DNA of 64,000 bases from Bolinopsis microptera. Taxonomy: Eukaryota. The stretch's first letter is position 1. Each line of letters starts with the position of its first letter. The position numbers and the translations under genes were made by a program. The stretch covers positions 4,810,797-4,874,796 of the forward strand of contig NC_087080.1 in NCBI RefSeq assembly GCF_026151205.1, written 5' to 3'. This document shows, piece by piece, positions 7,915 through 62,500 of this stretch. The notes beneath the pieces are model-generated. The model saw nothing but the letters and a program-made list of their open reading frames with translations, was not told the DNA's origin and searched no databases.

Positions 7915-9685
7915 AGGCGCGTGTACTGTTGCTGCACAGGCTAAAATATATGTTAATTGACAATGTCAATTCATCGCAGCTCGGCGAGGCACAGTAGCGC
8001 ATTTCACCGATTTAGCGTTGCAAGAAGCATAATCAATAATTGAATGCGCGGCGCGGCACAGTAACGCATCGTGCTACAAGCTATAATATTTATAAACATA
8101 CTCATTGGAGAATGGAGCTATGGAGGAATTTGTATCACGTTGTGACACCCACGGTCGTCCTGACGATACAGGGGGAGCCGCGCACTTCGTGCGCGGCGGG
8201 TGATACAACGTATGACAAGGAGGAATGAAGCTGCCTACTGCGCGTGCTGTAGAATGACAGGCTGAGCGCTGCCAAGTATTGCATATTGAAGCGTGTACGC
8301 CGACGCACGACAGGCGAGCTCCTGTGTAGTGTGTCCTGGGATTGTGCGCGAAGATCGAAATGCAATTCGTGTATCAAGCCAACTGCCAAGTGCCAACAAT
8401 TTGTTTATCGTTATAAATGATAATGGACTAACCAGTTTCGGGATACTTCGTAGCAACTAGCAAGCTTGCCGCGCATCGATCCAATAATGCTTCTCGTCGT
8501 AAGGCCACCTTACGACGTAAATGTTTGTCGTTAGATGTAGGCAAAATGCACCCGGCACCCCTGCGGACCTCGCTGAGCTGCTATGCAAAGCGAAAAAGCA
8601 AAAACTCAATGGATGGTTAGTGGTTACCCGTACCGTAATGGGTGCCACATGCCTAGCATGAAATATTTACTTACTTACTTGCACTTAATTTGTGTATTAT
8701 ATGTTCATAATCATATAAATTCGGCGGAATGACAGGCTTGAGGCTGAGCGCGGCCCAGTAAACTTCGCATCGAAAAATTTAAACGAGTAACATCCGTCAA
8801 CTAATTAGTAGAGGCTCTTACGGGCAAAAAGACGTGTTTTTTGCTACGAGTTTAGAGACCTAACCGCTAATTGGACACAATAGTATGATGTCTAAGGATC
8901 GATAATATGTTAAGAAGTATAAATTTGGCCTTATTCGTCACGTGCTATACCAATGCGCGTTTTAAACTTTGACAGTCTATTAATCTAAGGCAAATAGATT
9001 AATTATATTCATATTTTGTCAGCAATAAGATCACATTATTTTCTATTTGGTGTGAAAATATGAGCTAGAACGGACATAATCGCGCTGAGTTATAGCTGTT
9101 TGAAATTTATGATGAACGCGCGGGTGCCAATTGATAACAACTAAATGCTTTTGCGCGTAGTGCGCGTCGAAAATTTGGCAAAAACGCTTGCGGAGTGACA
9201 ATATTCAAACTTCGATAAAGTATATGAAGTGGGTACTTCTCGGAAAGGAAAAATTTAGGCAAACACGATGTGACTATTTTTGAGTTGATTTAATACAACT
9301 GCAAAAAATTATTCAAACTTCAAGCAAAAAAGTCAAAATTTTTACCACTTTTTTGGGTTTTTGCCTGCACTAAAATAGAGGGATTTTTAAAATTTTTTAA
9401 CCATCTTGTGTGGCTGTCTTTTAGCTACCTTCATGCAAATTTTGCCGAAATGCCAACAAAATTAACTTGCTCAAATTATCAAAAAACATGCTTTTTTGGC
9501 CTATTTTTGGCCCCAAAATCGGTTTTTTGCAATTTTAACGGTGCTAACTCAGTCCAATCATTTTGAAACTACTTTTAATCGATTCTACGGTCAAAAATAC
9601 GTCTAGTAAGGTGTATCTGGGGTCCCTAGCGTATCGAGCAGACAATGCCCGTAAGAGCCTCTACTAAATAGTTATATGTAATTTG
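7915..9685. repeat. Left arm of outer inverted duplication (pairs with 19637-21385)
   Basis: ORFs at 8040-8228(+), 8135-8389(-), 8235-8456(-) and 8457-8648(-) translate to the same proteins as 21100-21288(-), 20939-21193(+), 20872-21210(+) and 20680-20871(+). The flanks of the included MITE are reverse complements of each other. Confidence 0.85.
8808..9664. mobile_element. MITE-A copy 1 (Tc1/mariner-like nonautonomous element, TA target duplication)
   Basis: Terminal inverted repeats GTAGAGGCTCTTACGGGCA ... TGCCCGTAAGAGCCTCTAC, flanked by TA on both sides; about 857 bp. Confidence 0.75.
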
Positions 9686-10180
9686 ACCAAAACCCATAAT
9701 CATGGGTAGAGTGGACCGCTGCCAGTGTCTCTCTTTCCCAAACAAAAGGAAATGATATTAATTTGATTGACCGTTCTCAAATGCAAAATGATACCGAGAA
9801 TGAAATCGGTCGCTCGCTTTTCCCATTCATTCACGGCTTTCGAATTGTAATAAGTTTCGATTGATTATATCAATCAGATGCTGTAAAAATCTCTTTGGGT
9901 TGCGTTCGGGTCGATACCTAGTATTTCGGGGTAAGGGTGGTAGTTACTACTACTGAAGTTTATTGAATCTTTATTGCCGAGTACAGCTGCTTTTGGGTAG
10001 TTTTTCTTAGTCTATTACAATTGTAAATGAATGGGAAAAGCGAGCGACCGATTTCATTCTCGGTATCATTTTGCATTTGAGAACGGTCAATCAAATTAAT
10101 ATCATTTCCTTTTGTTTGGGAAAGAGAGACACTGGCAGCGGTCCACTCTACCCATGATTATGGGTTTTGGTCAAATATCA
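9683..10180. repeat. Hairpin (foldback) element: ~150-bp inverted arms around a ~190-bp loop
   Basis: 9690-9835 aaaacccataatcatgggtagagtggaccgctgccagtg... is the reverse complement of 10025-10175. Confidence 0.8.
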
Positions 10181-11639
10181 TCTATTTTTGATTATTATAT
10201 AATGTCAGGGTACTTTATAAAGTCGAAATATAAACTGATATCTTCATTAATAAGGAGGAAGTTTCAACGATTTCGAAATTTTTCTTTTAAAAACATTTCC
10301 TTGTGTTTAGGTAAGCATATCGGTCGATCACTGACTGAATATGCCACTTCATACTCATTCAAGTTGGCATTAAATTCATATATAATGACATTAAACTGTC
10401 GTGGCAAAGCAGAATTTGTTGGAAATCACGAATGAGCAAAATTCTCACCTTTCGCGCGTGCAAACTTTGAGCGGACGTTGCGTGCGCATCCAATATTGAA
10501 TCGCCGTAAATTTTTGCATGTAATTGTTTTATATATAGTTTGATAAGCATGCAAAGTTTCAAAGTATTTCAAGAAGAATTGTAATCACAACGGCACTCTA
10601 AAGTTGACAGAAAATGACGAAAACAGCAATTTTCAGTGATTTTAGCGATTTTCTATCAATTTGGGCGTGTCCCCACGTGTGCAACTTTTCGATTTTTAAC
10701 TTTAAAACTAGCCTAATGCACAATTTATACCTATAGGAAGCAGAACTGAGCTCCACAACTCAAGGCATGGCCCAACACCAGAGAATACTAAATCGCAAAA
10801 TTGACGTTTTTATAAAAAAATTCTTCAAAAAAGCACAAACTTCAATGACGAATATCTTTATGAAGGAGCAAGCTAGAAAAACTTTCCGGTAGATTTTCAG
10901 AATGCTTAAACAATTATCTAAGGTAAAAATTTCCTCAGATTTTGAATACAATTACTTTTTAATGGTGTAAAATCATTTTTAAAAGTTATTACTTTGTCAA
11001 AAATCAAGTTTTAAAAACGGTTAACTTGATGACGTCATCAAAGGGTGTTCATGACGTCAAATAATTTGTTTATACAATGTAAACTAAAGTGTAAACAATT
11101 ATTTTCAAGACCTGTGGTCGGAAATGGCTGTATCTTTTATACTTTTGAATCTATGGACAATTAAATACAGGCTACAATTGACTGGCAAAGCGTCTATCCC
11201 TGAATATATGTATATGTATATGTATGTATGTATGTATCACGACAATCTGTCGTAAAACAGGGGTTCTAGAAAACCCACTTCCCGATGGTCCTGAAACCTG
11301 AAACTTTTTTTGCAATCGATTTGGTCAACGTCTAGACGCCCTGAAAAATTTCAGATCTCCAACTCAATTTTAACATGGTTTTTAAAGCACCTGAATATGG
11401 CGAGTTTGGGTTTTTTACCGAATTTCGTATAACAGTGCTGGCGAGTATTTTATGCAAATTTCTTAAAAATCTCAACATAACTATTTTTTATTCCTGTCAT
11501 CTTTGGCATCAAATTAGAATGTTTTGAACTAAAATAAATCTGCTGAACGACTTCCGATGAGTCTTAATGTCTGAAAAACACCTGCCGCCTCCGGCCGGAG
11601 TGCACGCTTCGCGTGCACGAAAGAGGCTTGTAACGTGTA

Positions 11640-11712
11640 CCAAAGAGGGTATAATAGCAAAGGGGGTATAATAGTAAAGGGGGTATAATAGTAAATGGGG
11701 TACATAGTATAC
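11640..11712. repeat. 17-bp tandem repeat x4 (aagggggtataatagta)
   Basis: Direct reading of the sequence. Confidence 0.8.
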
Positions 11713-12030
11713 CCACAATAAATGCAACGGTCGTGCTTGCCAGCACTGTGATAATTAAAAACAAACTTTGCTTGTTTACCTGAAATTAGAATTTTATACA
11801 ATTAATGTAAGATTGAAGTCGTGTTTTTACCAATTTCCCTGCACCATCCGGTAAATTTATTACCCTCAGCCCTTCGTTGTGGGCTGCGCGGTCGTATCGT
11901 GGCTTTCGCCACGGTATAGCGGGGGCGAAATGAAATACAAATGAGGATCGCGACGCGTGACTTGTAGGTTTATAACCTACCAGGACGCGCGCCGAGTTGG
12001 ACTCGTCGACGGAGTATTTTTAAAACTGGT

Positions 12031-12447
12031 AAAGTTATTCCTATTTACAAGAAAGACAATAAGGAATGTGTTGAAAACTATCGGCCTGTATCAATATTAC
12101 CTTTATTTGGAAAAATTTTCGAGAAGATCATTTACAAACGGCTCTATAATTTCTTCACATCTAAAGGTGTATTGACAGACTCACAGTTTGGATTTAGAAA
12201 AGGTCATTCCACCACTCATGCTCTACACAAATCTATAGACTCCGTTACAAAGACTCTAGCTGGCAATAAACATGTCTTAGGAATATTCATTGACTTAAGC
12301 AAAGCCTTCGACACCCTTGACCACAACATTCTTCTAAGCAAGTTAAACTCCTATGGTATTAGGGGCACAGCACTTACCCTACTTAAAAGCTATTTGACTA
12401 ACAGTATGTTATGTATAACGATGTACCATCAGAAACAATGGATGTGA
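12031..12447 (+). CDS. LINE RT N-terminal part (frame 0), start truncated
   Basis: KVIPIYKKDNKECVENYRPVSILPLFGKIFEKIIYKRLYNFFTSKGVLTDSQFGFRKGHSTTHAL...IFIDLSKAFDTLDHNILLSKL. Confidence 0.75.
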   Translation, partial: KVIPIYKKDNKECVENYRPVSILPLFGKIFEKIIYKRLYNFFTSKGVLTDSQFGFRKGHSTTHALHKSIDSVTKTLAGNKHVLGIFIDLSKAFDTLDHNILLSKLNSYGIRGTALTLLKSYLTNSMLCITMYHQKQWM

Positions 12448-13529
12448 AATTTGGGGTACCACAGGGGTCAATTCTAGGGCCATTACTCTTTCTACTGTAT
12501 ATGAACGATATAGTGAACTGTTTTTCAGACAGTGAGGTGAAATTTGTACTTTATGCTGATGACACTAATATCTTTATATCAGGACCATCTAGAGAAGCAA
12601 CATACAAAAAAGCAAACTTAGTTCTTAAACATGTGTCGATTTACATGAAATGTAATCTACTCCATATCAATATGTCTAAATGTTGCTACATCCATTTTAA
12701 ACCTGCCTCTGAATATGATGAGACCTGTGCAAGGACCAGACCATTTGCTAACCTGCTAGATGAGTCTAGGTCAATATTCATCGATGGTAAGGTTATTACT
12801 AAAGTCAAGGATACCAAATTCCTAGGTATTGTTATAGATAGTAAGTTAAACTGGGCTGCCCATATGCACTACATTCGTAAAAAACTTCGGTCCATGACTG
12901 GTGCAATCTGTAGAATTCGACACTCGATACCTGGTGAACTATATTTGAAAATATATAATGCTCTCTTTGAATCACATCTCAGTTATGGTATAAGTGTTTG
13001 GGGCGTTGTCCTTAAAGAACGATCAAATGACAGTATTTTTATCACACAGAAGCACTGTGTAAGGATCCTTTTTGGTGATCTCGACTCATATTTAGATAAA
13101 CAATCAACATGTGCACGTACTAGACCGTATGGTATGCAAAAATTAGACCATAAACACTTTGAAAAGGAGCATACAAAACCCATTTTTAATAGACTAAAAA
13201 TTCTAACGGCTCAAAACTTGTACAAATATCACTGCATTTTAGAATTCTCTAAGATTATCAAGTACCACTGCCCCTACTCCCTTTATGAGGCCATCAACAT
13301 TTCAAACCGTGCAACAAGTCTAAATGTTATTCTTCTAAATAAATCAAATACCTTTTTGTTTAATGCAGCCAAGCTTTGGAACACAGTTCATAAAAAAATT
13401 TTAACTTCAAGCAATTGCCTAGAAACTTCCATTAACTTGATAAAATTGAGAACCAAAGCACTATTAGTACAATCACAGGCAGCCGACTTAAAAGATACCT
13501 GGACTCCAACCAATTTTAAATTGCAGTAA
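12411..13529 (+). CDS. LINE RT C-terminal part (frameshifted relative to the upstream segment)
   Basis: GVPQGSILGPLLFLLYMNDI, YADDTNIFI, LHINMSKC and a C-terminal tail; a 372-aa ORF. Confidence 0.8.
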   Translation: MYNDVPSETMDVKFGVPQGSILGPLLFLLYMNDIVNCFSDSEVKFVLYADDTNIFISGPSREATYKKANLVLKHVSIYMKCNLLHINMSKCCYIHFKPASEYDETCARTRPFANLLDESRSIFIDGKVITKVKDTKFLGIVIDSKLNWAAHMHYIRKKLRSMTGAICRIRHSIPGELYLKIYNALFESHLSYGISVWGVVLKERSNDSIFITQKHCVRILFGDLDSYLDKQSTCARTRPYGMQKLDHKHFEKEHTKPIFNRLKILTAQNLYKYHCILEFSKIIKYHCPYSLYEAINISNRATSLNVILLNKSNTFLFNAAKLWNTVHKKILTSSNCLETSINLIKLRTKALLVQSQAADLKDTWTPTNFKLQ

Positions 13530-14651
13530 TTAAATTGCACATGCAGCGGCACACACCTAATATTACTATCATGATTGAACTATAAGCTGTTAAGCTTTCA
13601 GATCCATTTTTAACCACTTGATGTAATTTTTTTAATAATTAAATATTTTATTTTACAAATTTATATCAGATCGAACCTATATTTGATAATCGAACCTATA
13701 TTCGATAGTTAAATTTATGCGATAAATTGATATTGATATTATTATTGTTGAGTGAAGTTAACTCCTGAGATAAATTTTATTAATTTTTAACAAAGGGACT
13801 TGGAGTATAAACGACCAAGTTCGCATAAATGCCTACCCAACCAAGAATTTAGGAGGCAAGGGTGGGTGCGTAAACTTTACGGTCTGCACTCTCCGATCCT
13901 GTATCACCCTGGATTCTTTTTGACGTATTTTTGTAATAGGTATATACCTTTATCCATTCTCTTGCTACTCCAAGTCCCCTAAGATATCTGGTAAAAAGGT
14001 CCTGCTAGTTATATATAAAATATATTTATGTTTGCTTTAATTGATACTAAATAAAATTGTTGTTTTCTTGAAATTGTTGTTTTCTTGGTCCTGATTAATA
14101 TTTGAAGCAAATATTTTACGACTACAAGTATCACCTGTTAAAGAAAAGATTGGAAATTAAACTCGCCGGTACGTCGACGGATGATGCTTGTCTAAATTTG
14201 TTCGAAGTAACACGCGCAACTTTCTTTTCGAAGCGAAATGTCTGTGTTACTGGGCGGCGCTCAGCCTGTGCCTTTTCAATTTCAATGTCATTCCGCAACC
14301 GTTTATCATTTACGAACGAATAAAAACAACGTCAATATTTTACATGTCACAGTTAGCTGGCAGTACGGCCCAGTTGATAAATTGTGCATCGCGCCGATCT
14401 AGCAAAAAAACATTATTTGATGCGCTGATCAGTCTCCTAAGACTAATAATATAAAACATCGTTTCTTTTGTCCGTAATTGCCTGTACTGCGTGAGAATTA
14501 CAAAATAATTACAGCACATTTACAAAATAAGAATAATGAAAAAGTAAACGTGTTTTCTCGGTTATAATTCATAATTATTTTTATAATAACGCTTTATTGT
14601 TAATGCAATCATAGTGGTCAGCTTGTGACATGGCTATGACGCCTTTTTCTT

Positions 14652-14836
14652 ACATGGTTATGACATGGTTATGACATGGTTATGACATGGTTATGACATG
14701 GTTATGACATGGTTATGACATGGTTATGACATGGTTATGACATGGTTATGACATGGTTATGACATGGTTATGACATGGTTATGACATGGTTATGACATGG
14801 TTATGACATGGTTATGACATGGTTATGACATGGTTA
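14652..14836. repeat. 11-bp tandem array (catggttatga)n, about 17 units
   Basis: Direct reading. The inverted counterpart is at 17898-18213. Confidence 0.9.
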
Positions 14837-17800
14837 CAACCAAAACTCCTTCAGACCAATTTTGAACCATTATGAGCACTTTCAGGATACAATTCATTTC
14901 CGTTCATTTCCGTTCATTCTATGAACCTGGGTCATTTTGTGCGACCTTCGATGACCTCTTATCTAGGCCTAGCTTATGACACTATCTATCATAGAAAACC
15001 GAATTGGGGGTTCCCAGCCCTTACGTAATAAGTCTCAAATTGAAATGACACACATGCGCCACCTATTGATTTACATGATAAACCTGCTAGCGCATGTGTG
15101 TCAAAAAAAATAATGATACACATGCGCTTCCTAGGTAGCGCATGTGTGTCAAAAAAAATAATGATACACATGCGCTAGCAGGTTTATCATGTAAATCAAT
15201 AGGTGGCGCATGTGTGTCATTTCAATTTGAGACTTATTACGTAAGGGCTGGGAACCCCCAATTCGGTTTTCTATGATAGATAGTGTCATAAGCTAGGTCC
15301 AGAGGTCCTCAAAAGTCGCAAAAAATGACCCAGGTTCATAGAATGAACGGAAATGAACGGAAATGAACGGAAATGAACGGAAATGAACGGAAATGAACGG
15401 AAATGAATTGTATCCCAAAATTGCTCATAATGGTTAAAAATTGGTCTGAAGAGTTTGGTTGGTCCTAGGACCACCCTAGCAAATTTTGGGAATTACTATT
15501 TAGATTTTTGGTACCATTTCGAAGACATGAGGACATCGTAGTATTCACTGTATTTGAGTGCTGGGAAGCATTAATTCGGTTTTCTTCCCAGCGCTCAAAT
15601 ACAGCTTATACTTCGATGTCCCGGGTCCCCATGGCCATATATAATGTATAATGAGGCTATTATTATAGCCCCATGGATCCCTTCGTCCCCAAAATTTGCT
15701 GGAGTGGTCGTAGGACCAACCAAAACTCCTTCAGACCAATTTTGAACCATTATGAGCACTTTCAGGATACAATTCATTTCCGTTCATTTCCGTTCATTCT
15801 ATGAACCTGGGTCATTTTGTGCGACTTTCGATGGTCTTTAGGCCTAGCTTATGACACTATCTATCATAGAAAACCGAATTGGGGGTTCCCAGCCCTTACG
15901 TAATAAGTCTCAAATTGAAATGACACACATGCGCCACCTATTGATTTACATGATAAACCTGCTAGCGCATGTGTATCATTATTTTTTTGACACACATGCG
16001 CTAGCAGGTTTATCATGTAAATCAATAGGTGGCGCATGTGTGTCATTTCAATTTGAGACTTATTACGTAAGGGCTGAGAACCCCCAATTCGGTTTTCTAT
16101 GATAGATAGTGTCATAAGCTAGGTGTCATAAGTCCTAGAGGTCATCGAAAGTCGCACAAAATGACCCAGGTTCATAGAATGAACGGAAATGAACGGAAAT
16201 GAATTGTATCCCAAAATTGCTCATAATGGTTAAAAATTGGTCTGAAGAGTTTGGTTGGTCCTAGGACCACCCTAGCAAATTTTGGGAATTACTATTTAGA
16301 TTTTTGGTACCATTTCGAAGACATGATGACATCGTAGTATTCACTGTATTTGAGTGCTGGGAAGCATTAATTCGGTTTTCTTCCCAGCGCTCAAATACAG
16401 CTTATACTTCGATGTCCCGGGTCCCCATGGCCATATATAATGTATAATGAGGCTATTATTATAGCCCCATGGATCCCTTCGTCCCCAAAATTTGCTGGAG
16501 TGGTCGTAGGACCAACCAAAACTCCTTCAGACCAATTTTGAACCATTATGAGCACTTTCAGGATACAATTCATTTCCGTTCATTTCCGTTCATTCTATGA
16601 ACCTGGGTCATTTTGTGCGACTTTCGATGGTCTGTAGGCCTAGCTTATGACACTATCTATCATAGAAAACCGAATTGGGGGTTCCCAGCCCTTACGTAAT
16701 AAGTCTCAAATTGAAATGACACACATGCGCCACCTATTGATTTACATGATAAACCTGCTAGCGCATGTGTATCATTATTTTTTTTGACACACATGCGCTA
16801 GCAGGTTTATCATGTAAATCAATAGGTGGCGCATGTGTGTCATTTCAATTTGAGACTTATTACGTAAGGGCTGAGAACCCCCAATTCGGTTTTCTATGAT
16901 AGATAGTGTCATAAGCTAGGTGTCATAAGGCCTAGAGGTCATCGAAAGTCGCACAAAATGACCCAGGTTCATAGAATGAACGGAAATGAACGGAAATGAA
17001 TTGTATCCCAAAATTGCTCATAATGGTTAAAAATTGGTCTGAAGAGTTTGGTTGGTCCTAGGACCACCCTAGCAAATTTTGGGAATTACTATTTAGATTT
17101 TTGGTACCATTTCGAAGACATGATGACATCGTAGTATTCACTGTATTTGAGTGCTGGGAAGCATTAATTCGGTTTTCTTCCCAGCGCTCAAATACAGCTT
17201 ATACTTCGATGTCCCGGGTCCCCATGGCCATATATAATGTATAATGAGGCTATTATTATAGCCCCATGGATCCCTTCGTCCCCAAAATTTGCTGGAGTGG
17301 TCGTAGGACCAACCAAAACTCCTTCAGACCAATTTTGAACCATTATGAGCACTTTCAGGATACAATTCATTTCCGTTCATTTCCGTTCATTCTATGAACC
17401 TGGGTCATTTTGTGCGACTTTCGATGGTCTGTAGGCCTAGCTTATGACACTATCTATCATAGAAAACCGAATTGGGGGTTCCCAGCCCTTACGTAATAAG
17501 TCTCAAATTGAAATGACACACATGCGCCACCTATTGATTTACATGATAAACCTGCTAGCGCATGTGTATCATTATTTTTTTTGACACACATGCGCTACCT
17601 AGGAAGCGCATGTGTATCATTATTTTTTTTGACACACATGCGCTAGCAGGTTTATCATGTAAATCAATAGGTGGCGCATGTGTGTCATTTCAATTTGAGA
17701 CTTATTACGTAAGGGCTGGGAACCCCCAATTCGGTTTTCTATGATAGATAGTGTCATAAGCTAGGCCTAGATAAGAGGTCATCGAAGGTCGCACAAAATG

Positions 17801-17897
17801 ACCCAGGTTCATAGAATGAACGGAAATGAACGGAAATGAATTGTATCCTGAAAGTGCTCATTATGGTCCAAAATTGGTCTGAAGGAGTTTTGGTTGT
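14837..17897. repeat. About 3.8 tandem copies of a 797-bp unit, each made of nested long palindromes
   Basis: The identical 60-aa ORF MNCILKVL... recurs at 15595, 16391 and 17188, a period of 796-797 bp. Each unit holds ~250-bp inverted arms (aaccgaattgggggttcccagccc...gacacacatgcgc) and a second palindrome centred on ggtcctaggacc. Confidence 0.85.
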
Positions 17898-18213
17898 AAC
17901 CATGTCATAACCATGTCATAACCATGTCATAACCATGTCATAACCATGTCATAACCATGTCATAACCATGTCATAACCATGTCATAACCATGTCATAACC
18001 ATGTCATAACCATGTCATAACCATGTCATAACCATGTCATAACCATGTCATAACCATGTCATAACCATGTCATAACCATGTCATAACCATGTCATAACCA
18101 TGTCATAACCATGTCATAACCATGTCATAACCATGTCATAACCATGTCATAACCATGTCATAACCATGTCATAACCATGTCATAACCATGTCATAACCAT
18201 GTCATAACCATGT
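17898..18213. repeat. 11-bp tandem array (catgtcataac)n, about 29 units; reverse complement of the 14652 array
   Basis: Direct reading. The two arrays differ in length (about 185 vs 316 bp). Confidence 0.9.
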
Positions 18214-18596
18214 AAGAAAAAGGCGTCATAGCCATGTCACAAGCTGACCACTATGATTGCATTAACAATAAAGCGTTATTATAAAAATAATTATGAATTA
18301 TAACCGAGAAAACACGTTTACTTTTTCATTATTCTTATTTTGTAAATGTGCTGTAATTATTTTGTAATTCTCACGCAGTACAGGCAATTACGGACAAAAG
18401 AAACGATGTTTTATATTATTAGTCTTAGGAGACTGATCAGCGCATCAAATAATGTTTTTTTGCTAGATCGGCGCGATGCACAATTTATCAACTGGGCCGT
18501 ATTGCCAGCTAACTCAAACTGTGACATGTAAAATATTGACGTTGTTTTTATTCGTTCGTAAATGATAAACGGTTGCGGAATGACATTGAAAATAGG

Positions 18597-19197
18597 GCGT
18601 GCACCATAAAAATAAACTTGCTCGGATTTTAAAAATTTTTGTACCATTGTTTTCTAGAGACTGTGAGAATTTTCACAATACCAAATTTGTCATACCTTTT
18701 TGGAAAGATCAGTGAGTTTCGCCTAGGTGCCATATTTGATGGTGCGCGGCTTTTGGAGCAAAATTAGCTGTAAAAGTCGCGTAATTTGACCAAATTTGAC
18801 CAAATTCGTTGATTTTTGTCGTATTATTTGGATATATCTTCAGTTCCTTGAATGAGATCATTCTGAAAATTGGCGACGACCTTCCAATAGGGCTTTCACA
18901 ACTGTCCGAAAAATTTGGTGGATATCGGAGTTGATATAGTAATCAAAATGGGGCAAAATACGCTGCTTTTAGCTGTTACATAATGTTTGATGGTTGGATA
19001 TGCTTCAAACTTTTCGGACACTTTCCTTGTAAGTCTATCAGTAAGCTTACCAATTTTTGTTGCAATCGGAGGTCGGGAAGGATACTTAATATCTATTTGT
19101 TTGAAGAAAATTGTGCTGGCCGAAATTAGCGCTAAAAAACCATCCTACAGTCGGTACGCGCGGCTCACTGTCGATGGCGCACTACCTATTGAAAAGG
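18597..19197 (+). mobile_element. R2 nonautonomous element copy 1 (hAT-like: TAGGG terminus, 7-8-bp target duplication), inserted in the right arm only
   Basis: Right arm: cattgaa|aatagggcgtgcacc...ggcgcactacct|attgaaaaggcac. The left arm (reverse complement) reads cattgaaattgaaaaggcac with no insert. Confidence 0.7.
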
Positions 19198-19636
19198 CAC
19201 AGGCTGAGCGCCGCCCAGTAACACAGACATTTCGCTTCGAAAAGAAAGTTGCGCGTGTTACTTCGAACAAATTTAGACAAGCATCATCCGTCGACGTACC
19301 GGCGAGTTTAATTTCCAATCTTTTCTTTAACAGGTGATAATTGTAGTCGTAAAATATTTGCTTCAAATATTAATCAGGACCGTCGACGAGTCCAACTCGG
19401 CGCGCGTCCTGGTAGGTTATAAACCTACAAGTCACGCGTCGCGATCCTCATTTGTATTTCATTTCGCCCCCGCTATACCGTGGCGAAAGCCACGATACGA
19501 CCGCGCAGCCCACAACGAAGGGCTGAGGGTAATAAATTTACCGGATGGTGCAGGGAAATTGGTAAAAACACGACTTCAATCTTACATTAATTGTATAAAA
19601 TTCTAATTTTAGGTAAACAAGCAAAGTTTGTTTTTA

Positions 19637-21385
19637 ATTATTACATATAACTATTTAGTAGAGGCTCTTACGGGCATTGTCTGCTCGATACGCTAGGGAC
19701 CCCAGATACACCTTACTAGACGTATTTTTGACCGTAGAATCGATTAAAAGTAGTTTCAAAATGATTGGACTGAGTTAGCACCGTTAAAATTGCAAAAAAA
19801 CCGATTTTGGGGCCAAAAATAGGCCAAAAAAGCATGTTTTTTGATAATTTGAGCAAGTTAATTTTGTTGGCATTTCGGCAAAATTTGCATGAAGGTAGCT
19901 AAAAGACAGCCACACAAGATGGTTAAAAAATTTTAAAAATCCCTCTATTTTAGTGCAGGCAAAAACCCAAAAAAGTGGTAAAAATTTTGACTTTTTTGCT
20001 TGAAGTTTGAATAATTTTTTGCAGTTGTATTAAATCAACTCAAAAATAGTCACATCGTGTTTGCCTAAATTTTTCCTTTCCGAGAAGTACCCACTTCATA
20101 TACTTTATCGAAGTTTGAATATTGTCACTCCGCAAGCGTTTTTGCCAAATTTTCGACGCGCACTACGCGCAAAAGCATTTAGTTGTTATCAATTGGCACC
20201 CGCGCGTTCATCATAAATTTCAAACAGCTATAACTCAGCGCGATTATGTCCGTTCTAGCTCATATTTTCACACCAAATAGAAAATAATGTGATCTTATTG
20301 CTGACAAAATATGAATATAATTACTCTATTTGCCTTAGATTAATAGACTGTCAAAGTTTAAAACGCGCATTGGTATAGCACGTGACGAATAAGGCCAAAT
20401 TTATACTTCTTAACATATTATCGATCCTTAGACATCATACTATTGTGTCCAATTAGCGGTTAGGTCTCTAAACTCGTAGTATAGCAGAAAACACGTCTTT
20501 TTGCCCGTAAGAGCCTCTACTAATTAGTTGACGGATGTTACTCGTTTAAATTTTTCGATGCGAAGTTTACTGGGCCGCGCTCAGCCTCAAGCCTGTCATT
20601 CCGCCGAATTTATATGATTATGAACATATAATCCACAAATTAAGTGCAAGTAAGTAAGTAAATATTTCATGCTAGGCATGTGGCACCCATTACGGTACGG
20701 GTAACCACTAACCATCCATTGAGTTTTTGCTTTTTCGCTTTGCATAGCAGCTCAGCGAGGTCCGCAGGGGTGCCGGGTGCATTTTGCCTACATCTAACGA
20801 CAAACACTTACGTCGTAAGGTGGCCTTACGACGAGAAGCATTATTGGATCGATGCGCGGCAAGCTTGCTAGTTGCTACGAAGTATCCCGAAACTGGTTAG
20901 TCCATTATCATTTATAACGATAAACAAATTGTTGGCACTTGGCAGTTGGCTTGATACACGAATTGCATTTCGATCTTCGCGCACGATCCCAGGACACACT
21001 ACACAGGAGCTCGCCTGTCATGCGTCGGCGTACACGCTTCAATATGCAATACTTGGCAGCGCTCAGCCTGTCATTCTACAGCACGCGCAGCAGGCAGCTT
21101 CATTCCTCCTTGTCATACGTTGTATCACCCGCCGCGCACGAAGTGAGCGGCTCCCCCTGTATCGTCAGGACGACCGTGGGTGTCACAACGTGATACAAAT
21201 TCCTCCATAGCTCCATTCTCCAATGAGTATGTTTATAAATATTATAGCTTGTAGCACGATGCGTTACTGTGCCGCGCCGCGCATTCAATTATTGATTATG
21301 CTTCTTGCAACGCTAAATCGGTGAAATGCGCTACTGTGCCTCGCCGAGCTGCGATGAATTGACATTGTCAATTAACATATATTAT
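19637..21385. repeat. Right arm of outer inverted duplication
   Basis: Reverse complement of 7915-9685; see the left arm. Confidence 0.85.
19658..20520. mobile_element. MITE-A copy 2 (inverted duplicate of copy 1 within the outer palindrome)
   Basis: Same TIRs and TA flanks. Its flanking sequence is the reverse complement of copy 1's flanks. Confidence 0.75.
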
Positions 21386-21424
21386 CACTCCTGCGCGCAG
21401 TGTTGTGACCTCCCTTCGTCGTAA

Positions 21425-22025
21425 TTAGTAGGTAGTGCGCCATCGACAGTGAGCCGCGCGTGCCGACTGTAGGATGGTTTTTTAGCGCTAATTTCGGCCA
21501 GCACAATTTTCTTCAAACAAATAAATATTGAGTATCCTTCTCGACCTCCAATTGCAACAAAAATTGGTAAGCTTACTCATAGACTTACAAGGAAAGTGTC
21601 CGAAAAATTTAAAGCATATCCAATTAACAAACATTATGTTACAGCTAAAAGCAGCGTATTTTGCCCCATTTTGATCACTATATCAACTCCGATATCCACC
21701 AAATTTTTCGGACAGTTGTAAAAGCCCTATTGGAAGGTCGTCGCCAATTTTCAGAATGATCTCATTTAAGGAACTGAAGATAAATCCGAATAATATGACA
21801 AAAATGGTCAAATTTGGACGAATTTGGTTAAATTACGCGACTTTTACAGCTACTTTTGCTCCAAAAGCCGCGCACCATCAAATATGGCACTTAGGCGAAA
21901 TTCACTGATCTTTCCAAAAAGGTATGACAAATTTGGTATTGTGAAAATTCTCACAGTCTCTAGAAAACACTGGTACAAAAATTTTTTTAAATCCGAGCAA
22001 GTTTATTTTTATCGTGCACCTCCTA
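21425..22025 (-). mobile_element. R2 copy 2 (inverted orientation)
   Basis: Reverse complement of copy 1: ...ggaggtgcacgataaaaataaacttgctcgg...gatggcgcactacct. Flanked by ctaatta on both sides (7-bp target duplication). Confidence 0.65.
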
Positions 22026-22953
22026 TAATTAGCTCGTATTCAGATTGAACAATTTTGAAGTCAAATAAATGTTGTTTCTTTTAGACTTAAATAAACAATA
22101 TGGATGTAGTCCGAAAGTAATTTGTCTACTAAATAACATTTTGAAACTATGAACAAAATTGGCGAAAATTTGCCGTAGATGTGACCAAAAAACTACGCGC
22201 AGAACTAAATATTTCTTCATAGACGCGTGAAAATTTTTGAGTTTAACATTGAATATTTTAGCTTGGTTATTGTAATACTTAATTTTCAAGTCTCTATCCG
22301 ATAACTAAATATTTTATCTTTACGACAGTATAAAATTTGTTTGTATATTTGCTAAATTAAAAAAACAGTAGGAATAGAAACGTCGAAGGTCTTGCGCTTA
22401 TTTCAGTCCCAAAATATACTCTAATCATAAACTTCATAAAACCCACTGAAAATGATGTCTACAGGCATATTAAGCCCTTACACCTTCCCAAATCATTTAG
22501 CAAGGATTCAGAGCCAGTTTTTAAAATTAGCTTTCGAATATCATTGTTAAGACATAAAACTATAAATAAATGAGTGCCCTTTTTCTCTTTCGTCTCGATA
22601 GTTTCTCTTTCATTTTAACATTATACATTAGTAAAAGCAATCAGCGATCTTTATTAATCATTGAAAGAGTAGAGTAATTGGTCCTCGTCAATGTTTAGTG
22701 TCTGATTACAGTTTCGGTCCGACCTCCAAAACTGAAAAGATATTGGGGGTATTATCAGTTATGTAAATGGAAAAATTATATTTGCATCATAAAACTATGA
22801 AAACATTGAAACTAATGTTTTTGAAGGCTCGCCTATTCGTTTAAGCAATCAAATAGTCAGTGCATGCACAGTAAAGAACAGTTGAAGGCACCGGGAATGT
22901 TTCAAATATAACCTCTGTCTACTATCAAGTATCAGACCACACACTCCACTATA

Positions 22954-31667: not shown

Positions 31668-31804
31668 ACCTAAATTGCTAAATAAAATGTTCAATTTTTG
31701 CTGTTATAGGGGGATCATGTTTTTTGTCCGTTCGGTACCCTATATTTTCAAAACGGACAAAAAATAGAGCGGACAAAAACGGACAAAAATGGAAATAACA
31801 TTTA

Positions 31805-34800
31805 GATGCTTCCTCCTCCTACTCTTCCTCCTCCTCCCCCTGGGTCTTCCTGATCTTCCTCAGTCCTCTTCCTCCTCCCCTCGGCCTCCTCAGTCCTCCT
31901 CCTACTCCTCCTCCTCGTCCTCAGTCCTCCTCATCAGTCCTCAACAGTCCTCCTCCTCCCCAGTCCTCCTCCTCCTCCTGAGTCCTCCTCCTGGGTCCTC
32001 CTCCTGGGTCCTCCTCCTCCTCTTCATCCTCCTCCTCTTCCTCCTCAGTCCTCAGTCCTCCTCCTCATCCTTCTCCTCAGTCCTCCATCCTCCTCCTCAG
32101 TCCTCCCCCAGTCCCCCTCCTCCTCCTCCTATTCAGTCCTCCTCCTCCTCCTTCTCAGTCCTCCTCAGTCCTCCTCCTCCTCCTTCTCAGTCCTCCTCAG
32201 TCCTCCTCCTCCTCCTCCTCCTCCTCTTCCCTCTCAGTCATCCTCCTCAGCCATCCTCCTCAGTCCTCCTCCTCCTGGGTCCTCCTCCTCCTCTTCATCC
32301 TCCTCCTCTTCCTCCTCGGTCCTCAGTCCTCCTCCCCCTGGGTCCTCCTCCTTCTCATCAGTCCTCCTCCTCCCCAGTCCTCTCCCAGTCCCCCTCCTCC
32401 TCCTCCTCCTATTCAGTCCTCCTCCTCCTCCTCCTCAGTTCTCCTTAGTCCTCCTTCTCATTTCTCCTAAGTCCTCCTCCTGAGTCCTCCTCCTCTTCCT
32501 TCTGAGTCCTCCTCCTGAGTCCTCCTCCTCCTCCCTCTCAGTCATCCTCCTCAGTCATCCTCCTCAGCCATCCTCCTCAGCCATCCTCCTCAGTACTCCT
32601 CAGTCCTCCTCCTTCTCAGTCATCGTCAGTCCTCCTCCTCAGTCCTCCTCAGTCCTCCTCCTTCTGGGTCCTCCTCCTCCTCCTGGGTCCTCCAGCCTCC
32701 TGGGTCTTCCTGATCCTCCCCAGTCCTCTTCCTCCTCCCCTCCTCAGTCCTCCTCCTACTCTTCCTCCTCGTCCTCAGTCCTCCTCATCAGTCCTCAACA
32801 GTTCTCCTCCTCCCCAGTCCTCCTCCTCCTCCTGGGGCCTTTTCCTGGGTCCTCCTCCTGGGGCCTTTTCCTGGGTCCTCCTCCTGGGTCCTCCTTCTCC
32901 TGCTCAGTCCTTCTCCTCCTCAGTCCTCTTCTTCCTCTTCCTCCTCCTCCTCCCTCTCAGCCATCCTCCTCAGCCATCCTCTTCAGCCATCCTCCTCAGC
33001 CATCCTCCTCAGTCCTCCTCCTTCTCAGTCCTCGTCAGTCCTCCTCCTGAGTCTTCCTCCTCCTCAGTCATCCTCCTGAGTTCTCCTCCTCCTCCTCCTC
33101 CTCCTCCTAGGTCCTCCTTCTGGGTCCTCCTCCTCCTCCTCCTCCTGGGTCTTCCTGATCCTTCTCCTCCCTCTCAGTCATCCTCCTCAGCCATCCTCCT
33201 CAGCCATCCTTCTCAGCCATCCTCCTCAGTCCTCCTCAGTCCTCCTCCTCCTCCTGGGTCCTCCTCCTCCTCCTCCTCCTGGGTCCTCCAGCCTCCTGGG
33301 TCTTCCTGATCCTCCCCAGTCCTCTTCCTCCTCCCCTCCTCAGTCCTCCTCCTACTCTTCCTCCTCGTCCTCAGTCCTCCTCATCAGTCCTCAACAGTTC
33401 TCCTCCTCCCCAGTCCTCCTCCTCCTCCTGGGGCCTTTTCCTGGGTCCTCCTCCTGGGTCCTCCTCCTCCTGGGTCCTCCTCCTCCTGGGTCCTCCTCCT
33501 CCTGGGTCCTCCTTCTCCTGCTCAGTCCTTCTCCTCCTCCTCCTCAGTCCTCTTCTTCCTCTTCCTCCTCCTCCTCCCTCTCAGCCATCCTCCTCAGCCA
33601 TCCTCTTCAGCCATCCTCCTCAGCCATCCTCCTCAGTCCTTTTCCTTCTCAGTCCTCGTCAGTCCTCCTCCTGAGTCCTTTTCCTCCTCCTCCTCCTCCT
33701 CCTCCTCCTAGGTCCTCCTTCTGGGTCCTCCTCCTCCTCCTCCTGGGTTTTCCTGATCCTTCTCCTCCCTCTCAGTCATCCTCCTCAGTCATCCTCCTCA
33801 GCCATCCTCCTCAGCCATCCTTCTCAGCCATCCTCCTCAGTCCTCCTCAGTCCTCCTCCTCCTCCTGGGTCCTCCTCCTCCTCCTCCTCCTGGGTCCTCC
33901 AGCCTCCTGGGTCTTCCTGATCCTCCCCAGTCCTCTTCCTCCTCCCCTCCTCAGTCCTCCTCCTACTCTTCCTCCTCGTCCTCAGTCCTCCTCATCAGTC
34001 CTCAACAGTCCTCCTCCTCCCCAGTCCTCCTTCTCCTCCTGGGGCCTTTTCCTGGGTCCTCCTCCTGGGTCCTCCTCCTCCTGGGTCCTCCTTCTCCTCC
34101 TCAGTCCTTCTCCTCCTCCTCCTCAGTCCTCTTCTTCCTCTTCCTCCTCCTCCTCCCTCTCAGCCATCCTCCTCAGCCATCCTCTTCAGCCATCCTCCTC
34201 AGCCATCCTCCTCAGTCCTCCTCCTTCTCAGTCCTCGTCAGTCCTCCTCCTGAGTCCTCCTCCTCCTCAGTCATCCTCCTGAAATCTCCTCCTCCTCCTC
34301 CTCCTCTTCCTCCTAGGTCCTCCTTCTGGGTCCTCCTCCTCCTCCTCCTCCTGGGTCTTCCTGATCCTTCTCCTCCCTCTCAGTCATCCTCCTCAGTCAT
34401 CCTCCTCAGCCATCCTCCTCAGCCATCCTTCTCAGCCATCCTCCTCAGTCCTCCTCAGTCCTCCTCCTCCTCCTGGGTCCTCCTCCTCCTCCTGGGTCCT
34501 CCAGCCTCCTGGGTCTTCCTGATCCTCCCCAGTCCTCTTCCTCCTCCCCTCCTCAGTCCTCCTCCTACTCTTCCTCCTCGTCCTCAGTCCTCCTCATCAG
34601 TCCTCAACAGTTCTCCTCCTCCCCAGTCCTCCTCCTCCTCCTGGGGCCTTTTCCTGGGTCCTCCTCCTGGGTCCTCCTCCTCCTGGGTCCTCCTTCTCCT
34701 GCTCAGTCCTTCTCCTCCTCCTCCTCAGTCCTCTTCTTCCTCTTCCTCCTCCTCCTCCCTCTCAGCCATCCTCCTCAGCCATCCTCCTCAGCCATCCTCC

Positions 34801-35050
34801 TCAGTCCTCCTCCTTCTCAGTCCTCCTCAGTCCTCCTCCTGAGTCATCCTCCTCCTAGGTCCTCCTTCTGGGTCCTCCTCCTCCTCCTCCTCCTGGGTCT
34901 TCCTGATCCTTCTCCTCCCTCTCAGTCATCCTCCTCAGTCATCCTCCTCAGTCATCCTCCTCAGCCATCCTACTCAGCCATCCTTCTCAGCCATCCTCCT
35001 CAGTACTCTTCAGTACTCTTCAGTACTCTTCAGTACTCTTCAGTCCTCAA
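31805..35050. repeat. CT-rich (CCT/CTC-rich) satellite with about 600-bp higher-order periodicity, about 3.2 kb
   Basis: Pure pyrimidine strand apart from scattered AG. The block gggtcttcctgatcctccccagtcctcttcctcctcccct recurs near 31845, 32700, 33300, 33900 and 34500. ORF 31789-32448 is a low-complexity artefact. Confidence 0.85.
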
Positions 35051-52718: not shown

Positions 52719-53552
52719 GGTGAGCTTTCTGGTTTTGGATTTTGAAACTGCTTTTGATTAACGAGTTACGAGACTAGCGTTTTGTGATACAAGCAACAAA
52801 TATTGTAGACAGTTTTTGGGTTTTCCAAATAGTTTCTGATTATTCTGATTTGCGACAAATGATATTGCACTGTTAGGATAAACGACGTTTCAAAGTAACA
52901 ACTTCTTATTCATGCTGACAAAATTGGTAAATATGTGAGAAAACTGTCTCATAAAATTTATTAATCAAAAATGGCTAAACGACAACAAATTGTTCAAATA
53001 CTCGACTAAAATTAGGATCAAAATCTATATATATACACCACTACTCGATCTGCTATTCAATAAACTTAAAACATCCACTAAACAGCAAGTACGTGATTGT
53101 GATCGTGTGATGGAATGACATGTACAGTGATAACAGATGATAAGATGTAAGTGATAACAGATGATAAGGTAAAAGATACAATACATGTGAGATGGTGTAT
53201 ACACAATGTGAGTGAAATTATAGTGAGTGGTTACTGATTGTGAGCGAGATGTGAAAAAACATTAAAAATTACTACTGCTAGAAAACTGAAACTGTATGCA
53301 ATAAAAAGGGAATGAAACTAAAATATCTAAAATTCTTCAGTACTAGCTATGATAAAACGTTTAATAGTATCCAGTTCTTCTCTCTTGTTAATATAATAAA
53401 TATTGTGTTCACTCTCAAACACATAAATTTTAATGTGCATGATTTTAAATCCGTATAGTATTCTTGTGACTTAAATTGGCTGTCAAGCATCTGCACAACA
53501 TGAAACTATTACCTAGAGAATACCAAGTTCTGATTTAATTACAAAAGTCACG

Positions 53553-53625
53553 CGACCCCGGAGGGATTCGAACCCCCAATCTTCTGATTCGAAGTCAGAC
53601 GCCTTAGCCATTAGGCCACGAGGCC
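53553..53625 (-). tRNA. tRNA-Arg (anticodon TCG)
   Basis: The reverse complement GGCCTCGTGGCCTAATGGCTAAGGCGTCTGACTTCGAATCAGAAGATTGGGGGTTCGAATCCCTCCGGGGTCG folds as a cloverleaf. The anticodon loop is CTTCGAA and the T-loop is TTCGAAT. A TTTT terminator follows on the minus strand. It lies in an intron of the ECM gene, 36 bp upstream of the exon 35 acceptor. Confidence 0.85.
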
Positions 53626-56536: not shown

Positions 56537-56614
56537 GCAAGTAAATGAAGCCAATGAACCTATAACCGTGACGATCTATGTGTTGGTTATACCGTTCGAC
56601 GAGAGTGTGTCCCT
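56537..56614 (+). CDS. Exon 44
   Basis: EQVNEANEPITVTIYVLVIPFDESVS; donor gtaagt. Confidence 0.5.
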
Positions 56615-56674
56615 GTAAGTACATACCTTTCTAAAAGTATATTGTGCTATATATTTTAATTTGTGATCTTTCAG

Positions 56675-57565
56675 AGTTATTTTGCCAGTTGACGATGAGG
56701 ATGCTGCTGAGGAAACAGATGGAGATGCTGAAGAGGAAACAGATGGGGATGCTGAAGAGGAAACAGATGGGGATGCCGAAGAGGTAACAGATGGTGATGC
56801 CGAAGAGGAAACAGATGGGGATGCCGAAGAGGAAACAGATGGGGATGCTGAAGAGGAAACAGATGGGGATGCTGAAGAGGAGAAAGATGAGGATGCTGAA
56901 GAGGAAACAGATGGGGATGCTGAAGAGGAAACAGATGGGGATGCTGAAGAGGAAACAGATGGTGATGCCGAAGATGAAACAGATGGTGATGCCGAAAAGG
57001 AAACAGATGATGATGCTGCAGAGAAAACAGATGTGGATGCTGAAGAGGATCCAGCTGTGGAGAATACAGATGGAGAAGACAACGGCATAACAAAAAGAGA
57101 TGCCGAAGAGCCCGCTGGTCCGCCAGCTGGGAATGTCGAAGAGGAAACAAATGGCGATGCCGAATTGGAAACAGATGATAATGCCGAAGTGGAAACAAAT
57201 GAAGATGCCGAAGAGGTAATAGATGGGGATGCCGAAGAGGAAACAGGCGGGAATACCGAAGAAGAAACAGATGAGGATGGCGAAGAGGAAACAAATGGAG
57301 ATGCCGAAGAGGAAACAGATAGAGATGCCGAAGAGGAAACTGAGGGGGATGCCGAAGAGGAAACAGGCGGGGATACCGAAGAAGAAACAGATGAGGATGC
57401 TGAAGAGGAAACAGATGGAGATGCCGAAGAGGAAACAGATGGAGATTCCGAAGAGGAAACTGAGGGGGATACCGAAGAAGAAACAGATGAGGATGCCGAA
57501 GAGGAAACAGTCACCCGTAAAACATTCCAGATTTCTTCTCAATTTCTTGAAGAGGTGGTTTTACT
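56675..57565 (+). CDS. Exon 45: long acidic tandem-repeat exon (TDGDAEEE x about 35; 24-nt period)
   Basis: ORF 56682-57569 reads VILPVDDEDAAEETDGDAEEETDGDAEEE... It stays in phase with the flanking exons, with acceptor ctttcag and donor gtaagt. The long S-rich minus-strand ORFs here are antisense artefacts of the repeat. Confidence 0.6.
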
Positions 57566-57855
57566 GTAAGTTAGCACAATATCATCGAGCCATGAAGGTC
57601 GTTTCTTCAAACTTCAAACTTTAGCATCGGGATCATCTTGGTTTTGCTTCCATGTAAATTGTAACGAATGCATGATACTTGGAAACCTTTTTTGCATTAT
57701 TTGTCATGAAAATTTCCTTTATTCGTATTTAATTTCTAAAGATTTTTAGCACTAGTTTTAGCATGTGATAGATACCTTCAGTATTAATTTCAATAGAAAG
57801 AACAAGCCCTGTTCTAGTTCCAAGAGGGCGAATAGTTTGCCTTTGAATGGTATTA

Positions 57856-60721: not shown

Positions 60722-62500
60722 AGGACCGTCGACGAGTCCAACTCGGCGCGCGTCCTGGTAGGTTGTAAACCTACAAATCAATAATTACATTTTGGTTGTA
60801 ATATTGAATATGGTACATTTCTACAATCTGATACTGATAGGAGCATTTAAATTTTAAGTAAATTGACTGACTTAGGTCAGCTTCAAAGTCTGAACAGCTA
60901 GCTATGTACCCCTCCATGACACTTGTCGGTCAAGCATTACTGATTACTGTCTGGATCATATTTGACGAATGTTACTAGTCTAAATTTCTTCGAAGTAGCG
61001 CGCGCCGCTTTCTTCTCGAGATGGCGCGCCGGGCCAGACCATCAACAATGGTCAATCCACAATCTGGATCATCACTGTTGGTTTGGGGATGGTGCCAAAC
61101 ACTATTAGTACTGCATTGCTAACCTTGTCTCACGTCGTGATAGCATTTATTTTTGGAAACAAGGAAAGACTTTTTTATTTTTAAACGGCTGTCCGTAACA
61201 CAATAACATACACAATTTTTTATAATTATATTATATTATACAATTTTTGAGGATATATCATATTATATGCGAAATAAAAATTATAGTTTGCGCCCGGTGC
61301 GTTAAACATTACTGAGCCGCGCTGAGCGATCAGCCTTTCATTCCGATGAATCTCTATGTTTATGAACATAATAGCCTGAGGTCCCCTTGTCATACGTTGT
61401 ATGACCCGCCGCGCACGAGTGCGCGGCTCCCCCTGCATCGTCGAAACTCTACAGTTCACTATAGTGAAGCGACCGTGGGGGTCACCACGTGATACAAAGG
61501 TCCCCAGGTAAGTCGAACATCGAAACGGCAACGTTGAACGTGATCCTCCGATCGCGATCCAATATATATTTTAAAAATCGTGTATGATATTGTAGCTTTA
61601 TAACCTACCTGGACGGGCGCCGTTATCACCCGTTAACGTGTATCAAAGACCGGCTCAGCGCGTGTTATTTGGTAAAACTTTGCCTTGGACATTGGAGTAG
61701 GGGGTGCACGATAAAAATAAACTTTCTCGGATTTAAAAAATTTTTGTATCACTGTTTTCTAGAGACTGTGAGAATTTTCACAATACCAAATTTGTTATAC
61801 CTTTTTGGAAAGATCAGTGAGTTTCGCCTAGGTGCCATATTTGATGGTGCGCTGCTTTTGGAGCAAAAGTAGCTGTAAAAGTTGCGTATTAATTTGACCA
61901 TTCACATAGCCATGTGCGCTACTGCAAGCGAGAGGGCTTTTATCTGGTTAGAGCAAATTTGACCAAATTCGTCCAAATTTGACCATTTTTGTCGTCAGTA
62001 GTATTATTCGGATTTATTTTCAGTATATTCCTTAAATGAGATCATTCTGGAAATTGGCGACGACCTTCCAATAGAGCTTTCACAACTGTCCGAAAAATAT
62101 CGGAGTTGATATAGTGATCAAAATGGGGCAAAATACGCTGTTTTTAGCTGTAACATAATGTCTGATGGTTGGACATGCTTTAAATTTTTGTTGCAATTGG
62201 AGGTCGGGAAGGATACTCAATATCTATTTGTTTGAAGGAAATTGTGCTGGCCGAAATTAGCGCTTAAAAACCATCCTACAGTCGGCACGCGCGGCTCACT
62301 GTCGATGGCGCACTACATAATTGGAGGACTTCGATGCACCGCATAAACCATTATTTTTACTTCGCATCAAAGTAATTTATACGAGTAACATCCGTCAAAT
62401 GCTAAAACCCCGACCCTAACGAGAAATTATACCAACTTCCTTATATGGCCAGTCATATCACGTGATCGCGAGACAGTTTTTCGCCAATATCTCGTCATGT
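60722..62500. repeat. Mosaic of repeat families also present in the 7.9-22 kb region (junction motif, R1-like fragment, R2 copy 3)
   Basis: 60722-60775 ggaccgtcgacgagtccaactcggcgcgcgtcctggtaggtt matches 19368-19425. 61380-61500 resembles 21100-21200. 61692-62330 is the R2 family. Confidence 0.65.
61692..62330 (+). mobile_element. R2 copy 3
   Basis: gggggtgcacgataaaaataaactttctcgg...gatggcgcactacat, flanked by ATTGGAG on both sides (7-bp target duplication). Confidence 0.65.

Follow-up and report, generated by a model that had tools for sequence, protein, structure and literature searches.

R2, a family of MITE-like non-autonomous cut-and-paste transposons with a 7-bp target duplication, and its probable excision from one arm of a palindrome in Bolinopsis microptera

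Introduction

The two inner arms of a palindrome in the genome of Bolinopsis microptera are nearly identical, except that one of them harbors an insertion of ~600 bp, here called R2, which the other lacks. This raises the question of what kind of element R2 is, and whether the arm without it represents a target that was never occupied or a site that the element has left. The palindrome lies in a stretch of 64,000 nucleotides, referred to as the window, for which an original prediction made from the letters alone had described R2 as a hAT-like non-autonomous element with three copies, a 7-8-bp target site duplication (TSD) and a documented empty site. The follow-up analysis described here makes it highly probable, taken as a whole, that R2 is a ~600-bp non-autonomous cut-and-paste family in a marine animal genome and that the left arm is the product of an excision.

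Results and Discussion

Copies of R2 and their boundaries

BLAST of positions 18501-19300 against the window, a three-way alignment and terminus searches consistently yield three copies of R2, labeled A, B and C (see Table 1 for all coordinates). The number of copies is that of the original prediction, while the limits needed correction by 4-11 bp. Likewise, the presence of a ~600-bp element in the right inner arm and its lack in the left one, where the flanks run on uninterrupted, is corroborated, as are the two further copies with their 7-bp duplications, CTAATTA for B, in inverse orientation, and ATTGGAG for C, both of which are perfect. Copy C is more diverged than A and B: in the BLAST comparison with A its identity is 92.5 % in the 5' 214 bp and drops to about 79 % in the remainder. 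A search of the window with an nhmmer profile built from six R2 copies found no further fragments.

Table 1. Location of R2 copies, target site duplications, palindrome arms and associated repeats. Positions refer to the window unless a contig is named; TIR, terminal inverted repeat.
Feature	Position	Strand	Description
R2 copy A	18593..19188	+	596 bp, in right arm of inner palindrome
R2 copy B	21429..22025	-	597 bp, inverted with respect to A, 94.3 % identical to A
R2 copy C	61698..62319	+	622 bp, rearranged: 68-bp insertion, 9- and 44-bp deletions
5' TIR, copy A	18593..18607	+	TAGGGCGTGCACCAT; 12/15 match to reverse complement of 3' end
3' TIR, copy A	19174..19188	+	ATGGCGCACTACCTA
Left TSD, copy A	18586..18592	+	TTGAAAA
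Right TSD, copy A	19189..19195	+	TTGAAAA
TSD, 3' side of copy B	21422..21428	-	CTAATTA on minus strand
TSD, 5' side of copy B	22026..22032	-	CTAATTA on minus strand
Left TSD, copy C	61691..61697	+	ATTGGAG
Right TSD, copy C	62320..62326	+	ATTGGAG
Putative excision footprint, left palindrome arm	14273..14285	-	TTGAAATTGAAAA, two TSD copies minus one A, element absent
Left inner palindrome arm	14087..14836	-	Pairs with 18029-18591 and 19188-19381; 98.8-99.5 % identity
Right inner palindrome arm	18029..19381	+	Carries copy A
Short repeat with TTCACTATAGTGAA core	61387-61498, 8129-8218, 21110-21199; L004 1137-1236; L005 401-440; L001 1145-1351		

All three copies have common termini, TAGGNNGTGCNC...GCGCACTAC(C/A)TA, with a 5' terminus TAGG(G/A)(C/G)GTGCAC and a 3' terminus ...GGCGCACTAC(C/A)TA in A, B and C; the bounds of the element can also be written as TAGGNNGTGCNC...GNGCACNNCCTA, with a conserved 3' end ...GCGCACTACCTA. 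The ends originally proposed are indeed conserved, although the 3' end extends a few nucleotides past the one then given (...GGCGCACTACCTA), and the alignment of the three copies, which had been suggested as a check, displays consistent ends and a perfect 7-bp TSD in each. The TAGGNNGTGCNC pattern occurs 5 times in the window, exclusively at element ends, against a mean of 0.1 in shuffled sequence. The two ends form an imperfect 12-15-bp inverted repeat, the first 15 nt matching the reverse complement of the last 15 at 12/15 positions in A, 11/15 in B and 10/15 in C. Concerning internal structure, k-mer and repeat analysis revealed a single TIR-like ATGGTGCGC in the interior, at element position 147, besides weak dispersed 7-10-mers that are not diagnostic; clustered subterminal repeats of the kind bound by transposases were not apparent.

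As had been predicted, none of the three copies has a coding sequence. The longest stop-to-stop frame overlapping R2 has 117 aa and extends into the flank, the wholly internal maximum being 82 aa, and the Pfam scan of the R2 frames gave no credible match (best E-value 0.049, below the curated cut-off). No Rfam family was matched by R2 at its gathering score, and ten concatenated six-frame R2 peptides found nothing among 5.8 billion proteins. The terminal 12-mer and 13-mer are absent from the searchable literature, in which a shorter 10-mer matched unrelated papers only.

R2 is hence a non-autonomous, MITE-like class II transposon with discrete conserved ends. It shares with MITEs a length below 800 bp, the combination of TIRs and TSDs, the non-coding interior, multiple diverged copies and the occurrence of subfamilies with common ends (of the type represented by L001 and L006, see below). 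There is no difference in kind between the two, MITE being a structural label that names no superfamily. R2 is thus an ordinary kind of element, an apparently new MITE-like family of the non-autonomous cut-and-paste type, and the value of its description is mostly one of annotation: for a marine invertebrate genome that is poorly characterised, it defines where a transposable element family precisely ends, how long its TSD is and which target pattern it uses.

Target site duplication and target pattern

Four complete copies are available for the analysis of the TSD, the three from the window and one, L010, from a contig filed under a bacterial MAG (see below). All four (4/4) are flanked by a perfect 7-bp duplication, TTGAAAA, CTAATTA, ATTGGAG and ATTTTAT for A, B, C and L010, respectively, while the chance of a 7-nt flank match is ~9e-5 per copy. 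The "7-8-bp" duplication first put forward is therefore to be narrowed to strictly 7 bp. Key for this assignment is the last base of the element, which is an A (...C[C/A]TA) in every copy with a 3' end, that is in A, B, C, L010 and the metagenome copy L001; being conserved in all of them, this A belongs to the element, and the TSD is of 7 bp and not of 8. An 8-bp TSD fits copy A only and fails in B, C and L010; it works in A because the 3'-terminal A of the element happens to equal the base before the left TSD. Assigning the terminal TA to the target is also ruled out on copies B, C and L010.

The targets are AT-rich and fit the pattern nTnnnAn. Among 10 ends, composed of the four TSDs and six half-sites, position 2 is a T in 7/10 (p=0.014) and position 6 an A in 9/10 (p=1.6e-4). 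In this small sample of 10 ends the R2 pattern appears as a one-shorter analogue of the hAT target pattern nTnnnnAn (PMC10368747). The consistency of the 7-bp TSD cautions against an assignment to hAT on a "7-8 bp" basis.

The left arm of the palindrome

The left-arm sequence CATTGAAATTGAAAAGGCAC has a single occurrence, at 14268-14287 on the minus strand. BLAST aligns 18517-18591 with 14354-14280 and 19188-19300 with 14280-14168, in both cases at 100 % identity. Base by base, the left arm shows gaca-TTGAAATTGAAAA-ggcac, against gaca-TTGAAAA-[R2]-TTGAAAA-ggcac in the right arm, while an unoccupied target would read gaca-TTGAAAA-ggcac. The left-arm junction is TTGAAA+TTGAAAA, i.e. the TSD pair minus 1 nt. 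When R2 is deleted in silico from the right arm and both TSDs are kept, the arms differ at the junction by one A only. The arms agree at all of the 60 nt on either side of the junction, and the other 546 aligned arm positions show 2 substitutions and one 6-bp indel.

The description of this position as a "documented empty site", in the sense of an unoccupied target, hence does not stand, since both TSD copies minus 1 nt are present, as in a footprint. As the left arm keeps both copies of the TSD except for one A, R2 would once have been present in both arms and later have been excised from one of them, and we read the left-arm site as an excision footprint, not as a virgin target; this excision is a single event, deduced from one site.

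A different account would have the left arm as a virgin target, with R2 inserted in the right arm after the palindrome was formed and the extra TTGAAA being a 6-bp duplication by slippage that has nothing to do with R2. In favour of this account, small indels are found in the arms, which differ by another one of 6 bp, and the insertions at 9683-11746 and 12013-14086 are also confined to one arm. However, the position of the extra 6 nt is precisely that at which R2 is inserted, and their sequence is that of a second TSD short of 1 nt. A chance tandem duplication of 6 bp in an unoccupied target would have a probability of roughly 1 %, judged from the indel density of the arms, about one per 550 bp, and from the need for the indel to hit and duplicate the 7-bp target. 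Moreover, an insertion with a 7-bp TSD into the left arm as observed would give gacaTTGAAA-TTGAAAA[element], from which the right arm differs. We thus regard this account as distinctly unlikely. It is conceivable that the palindrome results from an erroneous assembly of two haplotypes into one sequence, in which case the difference between the arms would be allelic and the footprint reading unchanged.

Under the excision reading, the process may be outlined as follows. A DDE transposase encoded elsewhere would bind the R2 terminal repeats and, upon insertion, cut the target with a 7-nt stagger; upon excision it would cut at the exact R2 ends, and repair of the donor break by end joining would leave the 13-nt footprint. 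The order of events would be the insertion of R2, the duplication or homogenisation of the arms (now 98.8-99.5 % identical) and the excision of R2 from the left arm, since the footprint implies that copy A was probably already there when the arms were duplicated or last homogenised. The footprint would in this way supply a relative timeline, from insertion through palindrome formation or homogenisation to excision. By the same reasoning the R2 family would have been mobile after the ~99 % identical arms arose, and the footprint points to recent activity of a matching transposase. Copy A diverges from its closest relatives by 3-6 %, which is more than the arm divergence of about 1 %; this difference agrees, if weakly, with an insertion that preceded the duplication of the arms.

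Superfamily assignment

An autonomous hAT partner of R2 would be expected to share its termini and to encode a BED zinc finger, a DDE domain and the C-terminal hAT dimerisation domain (PF05699). The comparison of the 64 stop-to-stop ORFs of at least 80 aa in the window with Pfam gave no DDE or hAT domain, the matches being of RT, endonuclease, GIY-YIG and EGF type only. Neither an autonomous partner nor a transposase was found in the window or the fetched loci, so the partner with a hAT transposase that the original prediction proposed to look for was not encountered there, and the superfamily has to be deduced from DNA features only.

These features lean towards hAT: one terminus reads TAGGG, the TIR is short, the targets sampled fit nTnnnAn and the footprint is free of remnants of the element. 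Non-autonomous hAT elements (of the Ds/dTph1 type, or hAT-N in Repbase) likewise have a short imperfect TIR, are non-coding and measure a few hundred bp. The ends of hAT elements carry a YARNG motif, as seen for example in the Ac ends CAGGGATGAAA/TAGGGATGAAA, the second of which resembles the TAGGG terminus of R2. The R2 5' end, TAGGG or TAGGA, fits YARNG in most copies, whereas the reverse complement of the 3' end, TAGGT or TATGT, fails at the last position. In hAT and, as far as the small sample of ends suggests, in R2, the target has a T second from one end and an A second from the other, and the footprint keeps both TSD copies with a loss of 1 nt; excision of the hAT type followed by end joining often leaves footprints (PMC5499845).

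R2 is unlike hAT in its 7-bp TSD, in the 3' TAGGT that departs from YARNG, in having no evident clustered subterminal repeats and in having no linked hAT transposase. The predominant TSD of hAT elements is of 8 bp (PMC5499845), a length that R2 shows in none of its four complete copies. Repbase annotates some hAT families with 7-bp TSDs (PMC4455052), and the TSD of R2 is therefore atypical for hAT but not exclusive of it. The hAT behaviour originally claimed for R2 is thus favoured by the TAGGG end, the short TIR, the target pattern of the small sample and the type of footprint, whereas an 8-bp TSD and a hAT transposase are not seen. Altogether, hAT is the best single guess, a membership that is plausible rather than demonstrated, and we put the likelihood of a hAT-related transposase somewhat short of even. 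A much smaller weight goes to MULEs together with other or new lineages, a still smaller one to the P superfamily, and the rest to no group.

Next in weight, then, is the reading of R2 as a non-autonomous Mutator-like element, or as a member of an undescribed superfamily of the hAT/MULE/P/Kolobok/Dada group, which we consider unlikely, if far from negligible. MULEs are close relatives of hAT elements, with long TSDs and an excision through flank hairpins (PMC5499845), and a 7-bp TSD fits no classical superfamily perfectly. Against it, MULE TSDs are of 8-10 bp and their typical TIRs exceed 100 bp (PMC5499845), neither of which is found in R2, with its 7 bp and about 15 bp, respectively. In addition, >90 % of the excisions of Muta1 in yeast, the only MULE tested, are precise (PMC5499845), unlike the R2 footprint.

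More doubtful is a place for R2 among the non-autonomous members of the P superfamily, similar to Galileo or 1360. Elements of the P type have TSDs of 7-8 bp and ends that begin with CA, and their excision produces long 3' overhangs from the element ends, with footprints that usually retain TIR bases. R2 and Galileo/1360 are alike in being cut-and-paste class II elements within surroundings that are rich in inverted repeats and rearranged, and also in the TSD length, which is 7 bp in Galileo (PMC2775673) as in the 4/4 complete R2 copies. The remaining features differ: the palindromic Galileo TSD consensus GTAGTAC (PMC2775673) is not seen among TTGAAAA, CTAATTA, ATTGGAG and ATTTTAT, and the Galileo copies tabulated in the same work have TIRs mostly of hundreds of bp, compared with 12-15 bp in R2. 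The R2 ends start with TAGG and not with CA, and at most one element nucleotide could remain in the left-arm footprint, where TIR remnants would be expected from a P-type excision.

Dada elements were considered as well, which have 6-7-bp TSDs and no TIRs and insert in small-RNA genes (PMC3706591, PMC8869645). The length of the TSD fits, but R2 has TIRs and no small-RNA target genes, as Rfam and tRNA scans gave no tRNA, snRNA or 5S gene at the R2 insertion sites, and we reject a membership in Dada.

A more far-reaching proposal, which seems rather unlikely to us, is that R2 and its partner make up a distinct lineage, either a branch of hAT or a sister superfamily, with an obligate 7-nt staggered cut at nTnnnAn and recently active enough to excise after the ~99 %-identical palindrome was formed. 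Were this so, the lineage would fix a target-cut spacing one bp shorter than that of the canonical hAT dimer. Should a hAT transposase turn out to be the partner, it would provide a natural variant useful for studying how the target-cut spacing is set.

R2 outside the window

Members of the R2 family were also retrieved from marine metagenomes and from a contig assigned to a bacterial MAG. A metagenome scan with an invariant internal 24-mer retrieved six marine contigs (L001-L006), of which L005 contains a copy that is 97 % identical. When contigs of prokaryotic genomes were scanned with the R2 5' terminus, one match was obtained, L010 (CBDDBR010000011.1), from a 2.36-Mb contig in a "Candidatus Endobugula sp." MAG. 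At L010 3039-3624 there is a complete R2 copy of 586 bp that is 86 % identical to A and has the perfect ATTTTAT TSD mentioned above. Viral contigs, scanned with an internal 24-mer as well as with the 5' terminus, yielded 0 matches.

The boundaries are well conserved in these copies. TAGG(N)GGTGCAC is identical at the six intact, readable 5' ends (L002 twice, L003, L005, L006 and L010), and the 3' boundary of L001, ...CACTGCCTA, is the same as in the window copies, as is that of L010. L001, L004 and L006 compose a subfamily that has ~296 bp at the start and ~90 bp at the end in common with other R2 copies and differs from them in between. The original prediction held that additional copies with inconsistent ends and no target duplication would argue against a discrete transposon; the readable ends in L010 and L001-L006 agree with those in the window, and the TSD of L010 is perfect. 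Duplications and palindromes do abound in the window, but the chance that R2 is a piece of segmental duplication or a dispersed satellite, and no mobile element, is negligible given the sharp and identical boundaries of the copies, their unrelated flanks, a different perfect 7-bp direct repeat for each copy and the occurrence of R2 in independent metagenome and MAG contigs.

At 1769-2218 of L002, two outward-facing R2 5' ends (element positions 1-141 and 258-1) flank a 64-bp unrelated repeat. The flanks of this pair differ (ATATGAG vs CTACATT), and the arrangement is a rearranged or chimeric derivative of R2 and no simple insertion.

Regarding the origin of L010, the 8 kb examined show two ORFs of at least 100 aa only and 39 % GC, and therefore look eukaryotic; the contig is probably bryozoan host DNA misbinned into a bacterial MAG. 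Another case, L009 (P0002), is a contig of a "Tenacibaculum sp." MAG that encodes a 972-aa non-LTR reverse transcriptase 80 % identical to that of the window, and both L009 and L010 would seem to be host or eukaryotic DNA that was wrongly binned in public MAGs of bacteria. The search of the RT-linked loci L007, L008, L009, L012 and L013 with the R2 profile found no copy. Directly upstream of the RT, three of these loci (L007 8070-9815, L008 752-2341 and L012 8021-9814) have an ORF that matches the 2OG-Fe(II) oxygenase/AlkB-like family PF13532, an unusual ORF1 for a LINE-like element. The RT ORFs of these three non-LTR loci are related to window positions 391-3081, and the equivalent of the PF13532 ORF would fall beyond the left edge of the window.

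Genomic surroundings and other repeats

The inner arms belong to a compound palindrome that spans positions 7945-21383 of the window. Its outer arms, 7945-9682 and 21383-19640, are 99.2 % identical, and within it 11747-12012 pairs with 19645-19380. Of the two insertions found in the left arm alone (9683-11746 and 12013-14086), the second contains an RT fragment. The centre of the palindrome (14837-18028) is made up of inverted repeats nested in one another, where each inner arm terminates in an array of 11-bp tandem repeats, with 16.8 copies in one and 28.8 in the other.

A second family of short repeats, whose core is the palindromic TTCACTATAGTGAA and which also has a GGGGGTCAC motif, adjoins R2 copies or lies within ~200-600 bp of them (Table 1). 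In L005, R2 abuts the short repeat directly, inside its palindromic core. The proximity of R2 and the TTCACTATAGTGAA repeat suggests nesting or a shared insertion hotspot.

Three further features of the window deserve mention. A tRNA-Arg(TCG) gene at 53552-53625 on the minus strand is the sole Rfam/ARAGORN match in the window. The block at 31800-35050, of ~3.2 kb and with 50-60 % GC, shows an extreme asymmetry of the strands, with a GC skew down to -0.67 and an AT skew of -0.65, and is composed of diverged tandem repeats whose translation is Ser/Pro/Leu-rich and of low complexity. At 56580-57620 there is a ~1-kb array of short diverged tandem repeats with self-match offsets at multiples of 24 bp. 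Several of its frames are open (SSSASPSV... on the minus and DGDAEEET... on the plus strand), and it could be a repetitive exon or a minisatellite.
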